Source: a virus (Duplodnaviria; Heunggongvirae; Uroviricota; Caudoviricetes). Taken from it: a DNA stretch of 42,699 nucleotides. The notes under the pieces are model-generated. The model made no database searches. It was not told the DNA's origin and was given only the letters and a program-made list of their open reading frames with translations. Position 1 is the first letter of the stretch. Every line of letters starts with the position of its first letter. The stretch is taken from the IMG/VR virus record IMGVR_UViG_2870490042_000003, one strand, 5' to 3'. The position numbers were made by a program, and so were the translations under genes. This document shows, in pieces, positions 11,886 to 30,051 of the stretch.

Positions 11886-12226
11886 CAGTGAGTGACCTCT
11901 TCAAAGGTACAGTTAAAATCGGTATACATGGCATTATCCGAAATGCTCCACTCCCTGCAGACAACCCGGACAGTCCTGTTGTGTTTTGGCGGACGCCACA
12001 AAAAAGCACGAATCCCGGCATGACGGGATAAAAAACTGTCCAGCGCGGCACGGGAATATTCATCTGTGACACGAAATACCGGTTTAAACGTTTTCAGATC
12101 CGCATTCAGACCACCAGCCCGTCGCTGTTCATATCCGTCACCAAACTTTACCGTAATAACTGATGGCTTTCGTGTCGTCTCCATCCCCTCACGGGGGATC
12201 CAGTTAAAAACTTCAGGCTCAGGCAC
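11885..12226 (-). CDS. M: Minor tail protein M
   Basis: Lambda M-like (…VKFGDGYEQRRAGGLNADLKT…); start placed at GTG 12226, which has GGAGGA 7 nt upstream and overlaps the H stop by 8 nt; the start is uncertain (ATG alternatives at 12241 and 12184). Confidence 0.65.
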   Translation of the reverse strand: MPEPEVFNWIPREGMETTRKPSVITVKFGDGYEQRRAGGLNADLKTFKPVFRVTDEYSRAALDSFLSRHAGIRAFLWRPPKHNRTVRVVCREWSISDNAMYTDFNCTFEEVTH

Positions 12227-15200
12227 TGTACAATCCTCCATCCCGACGCGATGACTGCATAATTGACACAACCCTGCTGTCGATCAGATCCACCAGTCCC
12301 CTGGCTGAGCGCGCATCTATCTCGCCATTGCTCCCTTGATTCTGAATGCTGATGTGATACACGGGAGAATAAACAAATCCACCGCCACCATTCACATCTC
12401 CAATGGCCCTGACCCCAAGAGAGCCGTCCGCTGCCCGTGTCAGTGGCATGATTGCTTCAGGCCCGGCCTCGCCCATCAACCCGGCCCCCTTCGCAAAAGC
12501 AAAATACGTCGGTGTATCCACAATAGTGTTACTGTAAGCACTCAGATTTGCCGATGTGTAAACACCACCTTTTGCGTTTGCCACTGCCCCCGAAATCCAT
12601 CCGCCGACCGTACCAAGCCACCCTCCGGCACCGGAGAGTGATTTCAGTCCGTTAACAATGGCTGCATTCATCAGAATTTTTGAAACTTCCCGGAGAACTG
12701 AACTCCCCCAGTTCCTCCAGTCCACAACATTTCCGGCCAGTGCATCGGAAATATTTGATACCAGCCCGTCCATAGTGGAAACGACAGCATCTGCCGCCTG
12801 CGAAGCATAATCGGTGGCACTGTCTGCCCAGTTGGTCAGCCCCTCCTGGAGTCCTGCATTCCAGTTATTACGTAAAGCATCGGCCTTTGCATAATAATCC
12901 TGCTGATCGCTGAGACGCTCTTCCAGATATTTTTTATTCAGTTCTTTCTCCTGTTTCCACAGGGCTTCTTCAATTTCTCCGGCCTGATACTGTCTCAGCA
13001 GCTCGTTATTTTTCTGCTCAAACTCATGCCGGATACTCCACATTTCCTGGAGTCGTTCACGCATCCGTGAGCCTTCACCATATCCCAGTAACTGCGCGTC
13101 GTTAGACGCCCGGGTACTGGCATTACTGTCCGCCAGGCTGCTTTCATACGCAGCAAGCTGCTCACGAATCTTTTTCTGGTCGATGAGTGCTGCATTCTGC
13201 AAAAGCGTTTTTTTCTGCGCTTCTGACAGGGTTGATAATTCGCCCTGACTGACCTGATATTTCATCTTAGCCAGTTCAGTATTCTGCCCTGCCAGTGCTA
13301 TCTGTTCTTTTTGCTGTTTAATCAGCCGTTTATAAATATCTTCTGTTTTTTCCGCTTCGGTCTTTTTATGCGCTTTGGGTTTATTTGCCTGGTTATTTCG
13401 CCAGGCATCCAGTGAGTTATTGATATAATTCTGTCTGGCTGTCTGATACGCCTCTCCCACAAAGCCAAGATCATCCGCAGCATAGCCCAGTCGAGCACGC
13501 TCACGCGCTTCCCCCTTAAGGCGGGACAGAGCCAGTTCGCGCTTGCTGTTATTCAGTGCGGTCTGCTGTTTATCATCCAGGGTTGCCTGTGGTAGCCGTA
13601 ACGGTACATTCACCAACCCCTGTCGCTGCTGAAGTAATTCATTACCAAGCCCAAGAAGGCGATTAAACTCGGTATGCTGCCCATTCATGATCAACAGGGA
13701 CTGATACGCTTTGTTTTGTTCCGCCGCCTGTTGACGGATCAACGCAACCCGCCGCTCCTCCAGCCCGGCAAGCACATCCTGAATGGATTGCGCTTTGCCC
13801 TGCATTTGTGTGAGACGGGACTGTTCAACTGCCAGTTGATTTGTTGCTTCTGCAAGCCCTTCTGTGACTGTTTTTACCGACGTCATGTGGTTAATCATAA
13901 AACCGTTATCGGTTGTCCAGCCCGGGTTTGCCAGCACATACTGATAGCCAGCAATTTTTTCCTGTAAGGATTTAATCTTACTTTTCTGCTCGTCAATTAA
14001 CCTGTTTTGCTCATCAAGTGCCTGCCGCGTCTTTTCCTCATTATCTGACGCTTCAGGAAGCGACATTGCCGACGTTTTCTGGCGAATTTCGTCGATTGTT
14101 GCGGCATACTGGCGTGCAGATTCTCTGGCCTGCTCCTGATTCTGATACATCGTGTACCAGGCCGTCGCCCCCAGCATGACGAGTCCCGGCACACCACCAA
14201 CCAGCCCCAGCGCACCACTTAACAGACGACTCCCCACTGACGTGACAGTATTCAGCGTTGTCTGCGCCGCTGTTCTGGCCGCAATATTACGGGTAAGTGA
14301 CGCCTGAGCAGCTGTCAGCTTCGCTTCTGCTGCGGCCTGCCTTTCGGTACCGCGAGCAGCAACAACCGCCTGTTGCGCACGATAAACCGCCGCACGCGCT
14401 CTGGCGGTTGCTATCTGTGTCCCCCGAAGTTGCGCTTCAGCAAGAGCCACTTCGTTTCTGGCTGCAGTAATTAATCCGGCAGTTGCAGATCCAGCAGACG
14501 ACGCCATATTGCCAAAATATCGGGCTACCCCGACGGCAACCAGTGCGCCAGCTGCAGCAGCCACGGTATCAATATTGTCTGCAACACCATTCAGCACACC
14601 GGAGAGTGTCTTTGTCACTCCGCTTGCCTCGTTCGCACCACCAACCCAGGCCATAAAGGCGTTTTCAACTTTGGTTGCAGAGGATGAAACAGTATCAGGC
14701 ATTGCTGCATATTCATCACGCAACGCCCCAAGCTGACTAATCAGTGCAGGAACAACCTTATCGGCGGTCAGTTTTCCGTTATCCGCCATGGCCTTCAGAT
14801 CCTTACGGGCAACCCCCATTCCCGCAGCCAGCGCACGAATAACACGATCGCCGTTCTCATTCACCGAGTTAAACTCTTCACCGCGCAGCACTCCCTGCGC
14901 CAGTGCCTGACTGAACTGCATGATCACCGAACTGGCTTCTGCTGTACTGGCACCGGATAATTTCAGGCCCGTGGAGATCGCCTCGGTGACTTTCAGTACC
15001 TCCTCAGAACTGTAACCATACTCCCGCATGGAAGCTGCAGAACGGGCAAAAAGGCTGGCGTTATCAGAAAACGCCGTCCCCGTTCTCTGGCTGATCGCCA
15101 TTAATTCACGCTGTGATGCCTGAAAATCATCACTGGACTGTGAGGCCTGCTTCAGACGGGCATTTACTGAATTCCACTCATCGGCGAGAGAAATAAGATG

Positions 15201-15452
15201 ACCGGTAGCAAAAGCCCCGGCAAATGCCCCCGCCATATTCAGTGCCGAAGATTTAGCTGTATTTATCTGATCCGTCACTTCTGCCAGTGCACGCCGCATT
15301 TCACGGGAGGCAGCAGCAGACTGTTGGCCTCCGTTCTGCATGGTGCGGTAGTAATCCTGCCCCATACGCGAAGCCCGGGAGATCTCTGACTGGAATGACC
15401 GGGAGTTTGCCGAGATTTTAATAATCAGTTCACGTAATGTCGCCACACTCAT
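12219..15452 (-). CDS. H: Tail tape measure protein H
   Basis: 1077 aa, long coiled-coil-rich protein at the tape-measure position between GT and M; start ATG 15452 or GTG 15446. Confidence 0.85.
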   Translation of the reverse strand: MSVATLRELIIKISANSRSFQSEISRASRMGQDYYRTMQNGGQQSAAASREMRRALAEVTDQINTAKSSALNMAGAFAGAFATGHLISLADEWNSVNARLKQASQSSDDFQASQRELMAISQRTGTAFSDNASLFARSAASMREYGYSSEEVLKVTEAISTGLKLSGASTAEASSVIMQFSQALAQGVLRGEEFNSVNENGDRVIRALAAGMGVARKDLKAMADNGKLTADKVVPALISQLGALRDEYAAMPDTVSSSATKVENAFMAWVGGANEASGVTKTLSGVLNGVADNIDTVAAAAGALVAVGVARYFGNMASSAGSATAGLITAARNEVALAEAQLRGTQIATARARAAVYRAQQAVVAARGTERQAAAEAKLTAAQASLTRNIAARTAAQTTLNTVTSVGSRLLSGALGLVGGVPGLVMLGATAWYTMYQNQEQARESARQYAATIDEIRQKTSAMSLPEASDNEEKTRQALDEQNRLIDEQKSKIKSLQEKIAGYQYVLANPGWTTDNGFMINHMTSVKTVTEGLAEATNQLAVEQSRLTQMQGKAQSIQDVLAGLEERRVALIRQQAAEQNKAYQSLLIMNGQHTEFNRLLGLGNELLQQRQGLVNVPLRLPQATLDDKQQTALNNSKRELALSRLKGEARERARLGYAADDLGFVGEAYQTARQNYINNSLDAWRNNQANKPKAHKKTEAEKTEDIYKRLIKQQKEQIALAGQNTELAKMKYQVSQGELSTLSEAQKKTLLQNAALIDQKKIREQLAAYESSLADSNASTRASNDAQLLGYGEGSRMRERLQEMWSIRHEFEQKNNELLRQYQAGEIEEALWKQEKELNKKYLEERLSDQQDYYAKADALRNNWNAGLQEGLTNWADSATDYASQAADAVVSTMDGLVSNISDALAGNVVDWRNWGSSVLREVSKILMNAAIVNGLKSLSGAGGWLGTVGGWISGAVANAKGGVYTSANLSAYSNTIVDTPTYFAFAKGAGLMGEAGPEAIMPLTRAADGSLGVRAIGDVNGGGGFVYSPVYHISIQNQGSNGEIDARSARGLVDLIDSRVVSIMQSSRRDGGLYSA

Positions 15453-15462
15453 TCTCCGGACG

Positions 15463-15484
15463 AAAAAAAACCGCCGAAGCGGTT
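15463..15484 (-). terminator. Intrinsic terminator-like hairpin between T and H
   Basis: - strand ACCGC-TTCG-GCGGT followed by TTTTTTTT, then GGAGA and the H start. Confidence 0.5.
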
Positions 15485-15492
15485 ATGTTGAC

Positions 15493-16181
15493 TCACTGAG
15501 ACACTATTAAAAGCGCGTTTTCCAGTCCGGCAAATGGATCTGAAGCGCCTTCTGTCTGCTCCTTCTCCCACTGAAGAAGCGCATCATTCAGTGACACTTT
15601 GACCCCCTGCGCACCGTAAATAGCTGAAACAATCTGGGCAGCCCGGAAATCAGCCCGTTCGTCCCCCAGCGGGCTGAACCTGTCAAATTCTGCCCACATC
15701 ATGATTTCTGATGCGGACATTTCCCGGCGTAACTCTGACAATGTGCGCCCCATCCTGAGCGCCAGCATCATCAGAAAACGCATCCCCGGAAGCGCTACTT
15801 TTTTTTAACCTCGCCGGCATCACTGATCAGTTCCAGAGACTGCCGAAGAAGCCGCGCATGCACCGGGCCATACACGGCAATCACCTGTTCACGATCATCC
15901 TCTGAAAATACGGGTTGCAGTCCGGTATCACACAGAACATCAATGAACAGTTCAACATCTGCCTCCAGATTTCGGCGGGCGCGCTCCGCAACGGATAACG
16001 GTGTCTCATCATCTTTTGCTTTAACGATCTCCTGCCAGCGCAACCAGGCTTCTGCAGAAGGTTCCCGTAACACAACCGTTGCTCCCTCCCATTCAGGCAC
16101 ATCAACGGTTTTATGGCGAAACCCCGACATCGTTGCCAGTGCCAGATTACGGATATTTTTAGTCATCACATCCATCCTCAT
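15493..16181 (-). CDS. GT: Tail assembly chaperone GT, fusion made by a programmed -1 ribosomal frameshift
   Basis: The G frame ends GEVKKK-stop at 15795; the -1 frame is open from 15804 to the stop at 15493; slippery heptamer A AAA AAG at 15804-15798; same arrangement as lambda G/GT. Confidence 0.7.
15795..16181 (-). CDS. G: Tail assembly chaperone G
   Basis: 128-aa ORF immediately downstream of V; the real start may be the ATG at 16166 (MTKNIRN..., AGGA upstream). Confidence 0.75.
   Translation of the reverse strand: MRMDVMTKNIRNLALATMSGFRHKTVDVPEWEGATVVLREPSAEAWLRWQEIVKAKDDETPLSVAERARRNLEADVELFIDVLCDTGLQPVFSEDDREQVIAVYGPVHARLLRQSLELISDAGEVKKK
15798..15804 (-). other. -1 programmed frameshift slippery site A_AAA_AAG (G to GT)
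   Basis: The heptamer lies in the G zero frame 2 codons before the G stop; the downstream -1 frame is open for about 100 codons. Confidence 0.65.
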
Positions 16182-16885
16182 TAACTGACGGTTACAGTGC
16201 AGGAAGTGGAGGTCACTTTGTTAACCGGGCTCGCTGAATCAGAAATCTCGCAGGTATACGCACCGGCATCACCGGATGCTGCTGATGCCTTACTGAACGT
16301 TGCCGCCGTCTGTCCGGAAACAGGAGAACCACCTTTTTTCCAGGCATAAGAATAAGGCGGCACACCACCCACAGCCTCAACCGCCATTTCAAGTTTCGCT
16401 CCGGAAGCAACCCGCAGCGTGCTTTTTAAATCGACCTTCACTTTCAGCTGCTCTGTCGTCAGCACAGGCTTACCTTTCAGGCGCAGAGAAAACGTTGCAG
16501 CCACAACACCATTGGTTCCTGCAGACCAGGTATGCTGACGCACCTCTGCCATAAAGGTAAATCCGTTGCCTGACGGAAAAATAACTTTAAAGCCATACGT
16601 GGTGTCATTGTCATAGGCACTGCGCAACGCGTTCTGGGCAGCATTCAGATAAAAGTTGCCTGACATGGAAATCTCTGAAGCAGCCCCAAGACCGTTAATA
16701 TTTTCCTGCTCAACAGAATACAGCGTGGTGACATCAATATCCTGCTTTTGTCCTGCGGTAAACTGCACCTCTTTGATTGTACAGCTCAGGCCAAGATAGC
16801 TGGCAGAATCCAGGGTTTCTGCTGTTACCGGTGCAGACGAAATCATAATTTTCGTCAGTTGCGAACGCTCAAAATTAGAGGACAT
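16181..16885 (-). CDS. V: Major tail protein V with a C-terminal Ig-like domain
   Basis: 234 aa; position and lambda V-like sequence; ATG at 16885 with AGGAGA SD. Confidence 0.85.
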   Translation of the reverse strand: MSSNFERSQLTKIMISSAPVTAETLDSASYLGLSCTIKEVQFTAGQKQDIDVTTLYSVEQENINGLGAASEISMSGNFYLNAAQNALRSAYDNDTTYGFKVIFPSGNGFTFMAEVRQHTWSAGTNGVVAATFSLRLKGKPVLTTEQLKVKVDLKSTLRVASGAKLEMAVEAVGGVPPYSYAWKKGGSPVSGQTAATFSKASAASGDAGAYTCEISDSASPVNKVTSTSCTVTVS

Positions 16886-16902: not shown

Positions 16903-16924
16903 AAAAAAACCCGCCAGCGGCGGG
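16903..16924 (-). terminator. Intrinsic terminator-like hairpin immediately upstream of V
   Basis: - strand CCCGCC-GCT-GGCGGG followed by TTTTTTT, then AGGAGA and the V ATG. Confidence 0.5.
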
Positions 16925-16945
16925 TGGGTAAAATCATTAATGACC

Positions 16946-29229: not shown

Positions 29230-30051
29230 TTACCTAGTTACCTTTTTTAACTGCCGCTCAGCCCATGCTTCTTCAATATCAAACCGGGTCACCAGCGCAT
29301 CATAGAATTTCTTAACTGTTTTTTCCCATGACGCGCGTGTTATCTGGTTTGTCACCTCGCATATAGCATTAAATGTCTCCGTTGATGGTAGTCTTTCATA
29401 GCCACGACCACCACAACGCTGGCAGTCTCTGATAACAGGCATACCACGTTTTACCGACTCTTCACGATGAATGGCGACACCACGCCCACGGCAATCCTTA
29501 CAGGCGGTGGAAACCTCACCCTTTCCGCCACACTCCGGACAGGCAACTTTTACCACCTCCCTGACTTTTTTCCATTCTTCCCAGTAAGACGAATACACAC
29601 CTTTCGTACACTTTGCCCATACCGGCGGCTTACCATCCGGATACTGGACCTTGTTTGTAAAAACTACGCTTTCAATAAATTTTTCCCCATAGCAACAAGG
29701 GCACTGCTTTTTACTCGCTGCGCTGCGGGCATAATCCTCAAAAGCGTACGAAGCCATAATGCGCATCACTAACGGTTTTATTTCTGCCGGAAGTTTTCTC
29801 AACGCCGCAACACGATCGCACCGACTGAGTGCATAATCTGCCAGTAATTCTGTTGCCCGCGCCCTGTCATTCATACTGATGCCCATTTTCCCCAGGAACG
29901 CAGAAAACCCCATCTCAGCCCGATTCTGTGTCATGCCCTGCGCGGCCATCACATCAGTGATACTCAGCGCATCTTTTGACGTTGAGGCCGATGCATCGGT
30001 CAGGCCAGGGGATTTTGGGGAGTAGTATTTCGGTAAATCTTCCAGTTTCAT
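29230..30051 (-). CDS. Antitermination protein Q (QuuQ-like, zinc-binding Cys clusters)
   Basis: 273 aa; MKLEDLPKYYSPKSP… N-terminus and CxxC clusters (CPCCYG, CPECGG, CKDCRG, CQRCGG); ATGA overlap with rusA; followed by pR'/tR'/tRNA. Confidence 0.75.
   Translation of the reverse strand: MKLEDLPKYYSPKSPGLTDASASTSKDALSITDVMAAQGMTQNRAEMGFSAFLGKMGISMNDRARATELLADYALSRCDRVAALRKLPAEIKPLVMRIMASYAFEDYARSAASKKQCPCCYGEKFIESVVFTNKVQYPDGKPPVWAKCTKGVYSSYWEEWKKVREVVKVACPECGGKGEVSTACKDCRGRGVAIHREESVKRGMPVIRDCQRCGGRGYERLPSTETFNAICEVTNQITRASWEKTVKKFYDALVTRFDIEEAWAERQLKKVTR

Follow-up and report, generated by a model that had tools for sequence, protein, structure and literature searches.

The prophage studied here carries two short genes, G and T, between its tail tube and tape measure genes, and both the RefSeq (PGAP) annotation and the GenBank phage records that were checked give them as separate coding sequences. 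The question raised by this locus is whether T is a protein of its own, or the C-terminal part of a longer product, GT, made by ribosomes that move into the -1 frame at the end of G. A programmed -1 ribosomal frameshift of the lambda G/GT type, within the HK97 gp13/gp14 family, is in our view very probably the answer. Tail assembly chaperones of the G/GT type reportedly form a class of genes with -1 programmed frameshifting, described by Levin and co-workers in 1993 and by Xu, Hendrix and Duda in 2004. The features of this class are present at the locus, namely the gene position, the conserved -1 frame, a slippery site in phase and coding constraint upstream of the possible start codons of T. 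In the following, the window means the whole stretch of DNA that was analysed, which is 42,699 nt long.

The G/T locus and its slip site

The genes and signals discussed below are as follows:

16181..16885, minus strand: tail tube (major tail) protein with a C-terminal Ig-like domain, the upstream neighbour
15795..16166, minus strand: G, HK97 gp13-type tail assembly chaperone of 123 aa (PF06222, PDB 2OB9, PGAP start)
15805..15807, minus strand: TAA in the -1 frame, closing that frame directly 5' of the heptamer
15804..15798, minus strand: slippery heptamer A_AAA_AAG, in the X_XXY_YYZ phase of the G ORF by a script check
15797-15795, minus strand: 0-frame stop codon TAG of G
15493..15798, minus strand: T segment of 101 codons in the -1 frame, entered by the slip; VALPGMRFLMMLALRMGRT...LIVSQ, stop codon TGA 15495-15493
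15493..16166, minus strand: predicted GT fusion of 224 aa, made of 123 aa of G and 101 aa of T
15783-15781 and 15771-15769, minus strand: in-frame ATGs of T, candidate independent starts, the second being the PGAP start of T
12219..15452, minus strand: tape measure protein of 1077 aa, matching PF06120 (HK97 TLTM; E 4.8e-93), PF20155 and PF09718

G matches PF06222 (Phage_TAC_1) over the entire profile (E 2.7e-58; 195.7 bits with a cutoff of 25; profile positions 1-124 of 124), and aligns in full length, residues 1-123, with the HK97 protein in PDB 2OB9, 'Tail assembly chaperone' (E 1.5e-49). No match at E <= 0.01 was obtained to PF06894 (Phage_TAC_2), the family of lambda G. The -1-frame translation matches PF06223 (Phage_tail_T) with 70.1 bits (cutoff 25.9; profile positions 1-69 of 73). 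When the two are joined, residues 1-220 of the fusion align with positions 1-220 of 224 in phrog_14766, a PHROG of full-length GT proteins (E 1.5e-91); against NCBIfam, the GT fusion found no match. The tube gene has significant Ig-domain matches (PF13895, Ig_2) and weak, sub-threshold ones to Phage_TTP_11 and Phage_tail_2, and it is named 'putative major tail subunit' in the phage records. The gene order of tube, G, T and tape measure is the one expected for G/GT. The window as a whole is a complete lambdoid prophage, with genes for integrase, antiterminator Q, large terminase, an HK97-fold capsid, tube, G/T, H, M, L, K, I, J and a tail fibre. Of 5426 complete E. coli genomes, 901 contain a 901-bp region of the locus, and four GenBank phage records named vB_EcoS-... 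match that region at 100% identity.

The longest minus-strand ORF of G (16181..15795) has 128 aa, and the initial annotation accordingly took the region up to 16181, which is probably 15 nt too far. The likely start is the ATG at 16166 (MTKNIRNL), because it is the PGAP start, encodes the first residue aligned with Pfam and 2OB9, and has GAGGA 7 nt upstream; the ATG at 16181 is less likely. The stop codon of the tube gene and this longer-ORF ATG overlap as TAATG (16181; region 16164-16190, minus strand), and ATG 16166 lies 15 nt downstream. Two terminator-like hairpins were seen within the late operon, both on the minus strand. One, at 15463-15484 (AACCGC-TTCG-GCGGTT followed by T8), lies downstream of the T stop and ahead of the tape measure start, and the other, at 16909-16925 (ACCCGCC-GCT-GGCGGGT followed by T7), between the tail completion and tube genes. 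In the HK97 record, putative terminators are annotated at comparable sites. With a Q gene at 29230-30051, Q-antiterminated RNA polymerase presumably reads through both of these intrinsic-terminator-like hairpins.

The anatomy of the slip site can be read directly from the DNA. The C-terminal end of G is ...DAGEVKKK-stop, and its 3' end on the minus strand is GAT GCC GGC GAG GTT AAA AAA AAG TAG. The heptamer sits within a run of eight A (A8; 15806..15799), and the G stop TAG adjoins its 3' end. The initial annotation was right that G ends in ...GEVKKK-stop and that the -1 frame is open from an A AAA AAG heptamer down to 15493, but it placed the heptamer two codons before the stop, while the last codon of the heptamer in fact adjoins TAG directly. 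On the 5' side the -1 frame is open only as far as 15804, so that the overlap of the G and T frames is the heptamer alone. Because of the TAA at 15807-15805 in the -1 frame, a productive slip is restricted to the heptamer. The first -1-frame codon after the slip is GTA (15798-15796), and the junction of the fusion is ...GEVKKK|VALPGMRFLMMLALRMGRT...; the fusion has 224 aa if counted from ATG 16166 and 229 aa if counted from ATG 16181. Wherever within the A run the slip occurs, the junction reads ...EVKKK|VALPGM... with three Lys, one more than in the ...EVKK/VALPGM... that was first suggested. The predicted Glu-C junction peptide of the fusion is VKKKVALPGMRFLMMLALRMGRTLSE; trypsin cuts after each Lys.

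According to the mechanism that we favour, the majority of ribosomes would read GTT AAA AAA AAG and stop at the adjoining TAG, leaving the 123-aa chaperone G. A minority would slip back one base on A_AAA_AAG; the sole E. coli tRNA-Lys pairs better with AAA than with AAG (PMC5009743). The slipped ribosomes would continue with GTA GCG CTT CCG... to complete the 224-aa GT (...EVKKK-VALPGMRFLMM...). By analogy with lambda, many G and few GT molecules would coat the tape measure protein, the T domain would recruit the tube protein, and neither chaperone would be retained in the virion; the G:GT ratio in lambda is about 30:1, and its mechanism and role have been reviewed (PMC5009743). We infer that this prophage makes the fusion, and that GT has the corresponding role in tail assembly. 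Its level is probably a few percent, by analogy with a tested homologue: a homologous cassette with A_AAA_AAG and TAG supported 7% +/- 0.79 of -1 frameshifting in E. coli (Antonov 2013, PMC3711429 Table S2). Another member of the same 'Phage_TAC' cluster, with G_GGA_AAG_CCG_TAA, gave 6% (PMC3711429).

The heptamer alone was considered as a significant signal and rejected. AAAAAAG is not rare in the 42,699-nt window (16 copies, with 9.95 +/- 2.86 expected from shuffles), and its context alone is significant. This abundance, together with the homopolymer-length variants A7 and A9 among relatives, is compatible with a chance juxtaposition or a decaying prophage, in which the heptamer would be incidental and the genes would not be productively expressed. 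However, the copy at the G/T site is the only one of the 16 that has the signature of an ending G and an opening T, that is, a 139-codon 0-frame ORF which ends at most two codons away and a newly opened -1 ORF. In a scan of the 16 copies, the -1 frame at this heptamer opens two codons upstream and then runs for 101 codons. Furthermore, the arrangement is kept across Enterobacterales at G identities down to 40%, the four vB_EcoS-... phage records are 100% identical to the region, and the prophage has a complete structural module in addition to integrase, Q and terminase genes. Coincidence or decay is thus hardly credible. Apart from this, the gene for antiterminator Q (29230-30051) has a second in-phase A_AAA_AAG at 29242-29248 (minus strand), with the stop codon of the gene 5 codons further on. 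A -1 slip there would end 2 codons on and yield a product 3 aa shorter, which is probably inconsequential.

Entry into the T frame among related loci

Three features were observed directly in related loci: the relation of the two frames, the codon at the shift site and the constraint on the T frame. A total of 201 loci were gathered, 70 of which are from one-per-species genomes across Enterobacterales, with G identity down to 40%. A query with the single protein reached 100%-identical loci only, and the diverse loci were reached by an alignment query. Relative to G, T lies in the -1 frame at 195 of 200 related loci. Exceptions to the frame are L160 and L179, which have A7; L141, in which A9 puts T in frame; L112, with A6; L100, with an indel within G; and L183, the G of which is truncated at its 5' end.

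Among 140 distinct contexts, in-phase A_AAA_AAG is the modal site (100 contexts), and in 89 of these 100 the stop directly adjoins it. The others have G_GGA_AAG (6), A_AAA_AAA (2) or no canonical heptamer (32). Nevertheless, 31 of the 32 non-canonical contexts keep an in-phase A_AAG (GAA AAG of HK97, GCA AAG TAA, etc.), the exception being L183, which is not assessable. An in-phase A_AAG site is found in every -1-frame locus where the site is locatable, i.e., all but L183. All 72 loci that were compared use AAG at the shift site (A-site), although AAG makes up only 30% of the Lys codons in other parts of the same genes; the 72 loci are related, and no formal probability is attached to this figure. 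The initial annotation pointed out that the slippery sequence differs from that of lambda. The difference itself stands, as lambda uses G_GGA_AAG, but the implied novelty does not, since A_AAA_AAG is the modal site of the family and has already been tested (7%, PMC3711429).

The point at which translation enters the T frame is indicated by conservation. The alignment of the T-frame protein holds from the residue directly behind the slip, with the pattern K|V-x-x-P-x-x-x-F-L-M-x-LALR-x-G-R/K-T. The Val, which lies between the shift site and the conserved ATG, is kept in 62 of 67 relatives. Pro at residue 4 is kept in 64 of 67 and is encoded by all four codons (CCC 22, CCG 20, CCT 12 and CCA 10), and Phe is kept in 66 of 67, encoded equally by TTT (33) and TTC (33). 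Both Pro and Phe are upstream of the sole widely conserved ATG of the T frame (64 of 67). Because T-frame conservation with synonymous variation begins at the slip site, upstream of the conserved ATG, the alignments indicate that translation enters the T frame there, and not at a start codon. The ATGs at 15783 and 15771 are probably internal Met codons.

Independent translation of T has to be weighed against these observations. T could be produced by reinitiation after the G stop, or by de novo initiation at ATG 15783 or 15771, as a free protein of 92-96 aa with no functional fusion being made. These ATGs are 12 and 24 nt downstream of the G stop, respectively, the equivalent of ATG 15771 is present in 64 of 67 relatives, and PGAP and the phage records indeed list T as a separate coding sequence. 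However, the conserved Val, Pro and Phe start exactly at the shift site, upstream of the conserved ATG, and independent translation leaves the strict -1 relationship and the invariant in-phase A_AAG unexplained. Just 21 of 67 relatives have Met where the window has ATG 15783, and the first ATG comes as late as residue 32 in L102 and L108 and residue 18 in L155. On inspection of the sequence neither ATG has a well-spaced Shine-Dalgarno (SD) sequence, as GGGG abuts ATG 15783 and GGGGA is 11 nt from ATG 15771. In lambda, the 1993 work of Levin, Hendrix and Casjens is said to have found T to be made only as GT. Independent translation is therefore a very improbable source of T function, while some termination-reinitiation that yields free T may occur. 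The view of the initial annotation that the ATG-initiated ORF in the T frame is merely the tail of the fusion fits these data well, and the lambda G/GT-type mechanism that it proposed is supported by gene position, homology, the -1 frame in 195 of 200 loci, the in-phase sites, the constraint on the T frame and the alignment with phrog_14766.

The stop codon adjoins the shift codon in 44 of the 67 contexts, as TAA in 27, TAG in 17 and TGA in none. TGA at this place would still encode Val (GTG) in the T frame, and TAG as the adjoining stop looks over-represented for enterobacterial genes. In a protein database of 5.8 billion clusters, hardly any genes have G and T joined in frame in the DNA itself; the search gave three sporadic proteins, each on a single contig. 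Such proteins were considered as evidence for or against the frameshift and set aside as noise; P0001 and P0003 carry obvious indels, and P0002 has an in-frame linker deletion. In three other proteins, P0091, P0096 and P0098, a G or T domain is joined to an unrelated tail or lysis domain, namely the tape measure C-terminus, J Ig domains or a glycoside hydrolase. Such proteins probably represent chimeras from E. coli prophages that arose by deletion or in assembly.

Ribosome, RNA polymerase and stimulatory elements

The same fusion could also originate at transcription. If RNA polymerase adds an extra A on the A8/T8 tract, the resulting A9 mRNA would give the same GT (...VKKKVALPGM...) by standard translation, a protein identical to the frameshift product. 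The tract is 8 A long, A runs with n > 7 are among the motifs for programmed transcriptional realignment (Antonov et al., PMC3711429), and the existence of A9 and A7 variants of the tract at the DNA level suggests that it is slippage-prone for polymerases. However, efficient slippage of bacterial RNA polymerase has been documented for runs of 9 A/T (PMC5009743), and the run here has 8. Programmed transcriptional realignment calls for a conserved run of at least 9 A/T, whereas the relatives have between 3 and 9. The lengths in 67 contexts are 3 (18 contexts), 4 (9), 6 (3), 7 (29), 8 (7) and 9 (1). In 27 of the 67 the run is thus only 3-4 nt, and these contexts still have T in the -1 frame and an A_AAG in phase; therefore, the family-wide mechanism is ribosomal. 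A tested homologue with 6 A still gave 7% (PMC3711429). In addition, AAG as the shift codon in 72 of 72 loci and a heptamer kept strictly in phase are ribosomal signatures for which polymerase slippage has no need. Transcriptional slippage as the source of GT is improbable, and a minor contribution of it may exist in this prophage.

The length of the A tract varies among otherwise near-identical prophages, the examples being L160, L179, L141, L112 and the protein cluster P0004, which has 54 member sequences. In A7 variants T is put in the +1 frame and G becomes longer by 38 aa; in the A9 variant, which comes from a Symbiopectobacterium symbiont, the two genes form a single reading frame. These variants may be real mutations, phase-variation-like events or errors in the assembly of homopolymers. 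Two IMG/VR contigs, L186 and L187, have a G that is 76-78% identical and the sequence GTT AAA AAA AAA TAG, in which the heptamer is A_AAA_AAA and 9 A adjoin the stop; their T frame starts with IAMPG.... They are the best candidates for a real contribution of transcriptional slippage.

For ribosomal frameshifting at A_AAA_AAG, stimulatory elements were searched for on both sides of the site. Folds of 53 and 98 nt on its 3' side were no better than those of shuffled sequences (z +0.18 and -1.10), and RNAalifold predicted 0 conserved pairs in 33 diverse homologues. An upstream SD-like motif is absent in 33 of 67 relatives, and its spacing is variable in the remainder, so that it is not a conserved element. 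In the window, GAGG lies 4 nt 5' of the heptamer. It was considered as an SD-like stimulator and rejected, being too close for a dnaX-like effect and not conserved. A stimulated cassette of the dnaX type was likewise dismissed, as these searches turned up neither a supported downstream stem-loop nor a conserved SD-like stimulator at a distance of about 10 nt on the 5' side. With no stimulator found, the efficiency of frameshifting would depend on the heptamer alone, possibly helped by the adjoining stop. Of the heptamers known in E. coli, A_AAA_AAG is the most shift-prone. A stronger proposal is that the adjoining 0-frame stop is itself the stimulatory or pausing element, in place of an RNA structure, and that the A8 run adds polymerase slippage here. 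We consider this proposal speculative and rather unlikely. If it were true, the G:GT ratio would be higher than the 30:1 of lambda, and would respond to release-factor status and to the modification status of tRNA-Lys.

Annotation and known relatives

Frameshifting in this gene family is already known. The site is a textbook recoding event, and its scientific weight is small. The main value of the analysis is in annotation, as the records of a prophage that 901 of 5426 complete E. coli genomes carry lack the 224-aa GT. Because G and T are annotated separately, GT is absent from the proteomes used for mass spectrometry, structure prediction and studies of defence sensing. A simple rule can be given for PF06222/PF06223 pairs, which is to join them at whichever in-phase A_AAG is nearest upstream of the G stop. 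What remains of mild interest is the omission of the fusion from public annotation, the stop adjoining the heptamer (44 of 67) and the variable A tract. In the record of phage vB_EcoM-606R7 (ON470580.1; L002), a third 'tail assembly chaperone' coding sequence is given at 1981-2118, a +1-frame ORF across the G/T junction, and T is called from a later ATG. The junction DNA of this record is identical to that of the window, and the third coding sequence looks like an annotation artefact, for which reason it was not retained as a gene.

Four known systems can be compared with the site. First, E. coli dnaX (tau/gamma) uses the same heptamer, A_AAA_AAG, and the same logic of re-pairing by tRNA-Lys with mnm5s2U34 (PMC5009743). 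It differs in having an upstream SD-like stimulator and a downstream hairpin, with about 50% shifting, whereas no stimulators were found in the window, and the frameshift product is the shorter protein in dnaX but the longer one here.

Second, the pair in Stx/O157 prophages (e.g., phage 2851, NC_049943) is the 'Phage_TAC' cluster that was tested in PMC3711429, where -1 frameshifting in E. coli came to 7%. Like the pair in the window, it belongs to an E. coli prophage and to the same Pfam families, and has A_AAA_AAG followed directly by TAG and then GTA GC. in the -1 frame. The proteins of phage 2851 are 68% (G) and 62% (T) identical to those in the window. Its A run has 6 A (AGA AAA AAG) instead of 8, and Ile is found at the position of the window's ATG 15783.

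Third, HK97 gp13 and gp13-14 (NC_002167, HK97p11/p12; PDB 2OB9) are the relatives by family, with PF06222 and PF06223 in the same roles and identities of 64% for G and 62% for T. The HK97 pair is likewise flanked by the major tail and tape measure genes, with T in the -1 frame and a tRNA-Lys shift at an in-phase A_AAG. A comparison with annotated G/GT pairs, which the initial annotation proposed, agrees with a frameshift here, as the HK97 GenBank record labels the GT-equivalent product 'translated due to a -1 frameshift'. The HK97 site, CGG GAA AAG, is non-canonical in phase, and its G stop is 5 codons further on, whereas A_AAA_AAG abuts TAG in the window. In HK97 a moron, gp15, separates GT from the tape measure gene, and the window has no moron there.

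Finally, lambda G/GT shares with the window the -1 frameshift near the end of G, GT at a low, fixed ratio, a T belonging to PF06223, and the position, which in lambda is between V and H. Lambda is reported by Levin, Hendrix and Casjens in 1993 to need no RNA-structure stimulator, and none was found at the site in the window. On the other hand, lambda G belongs to PF06894 (E 9.2e-62), to which the HK97-type G of the window has no match, and the lambda heptamer is G_GGA_AAG (GCG GGA AAG), followed by five codons and then TGA. Judged from these comparisons, the site works like lambda G/GT, and by family it is HK97 gp13/gp14 (PF06222 and PF06223).
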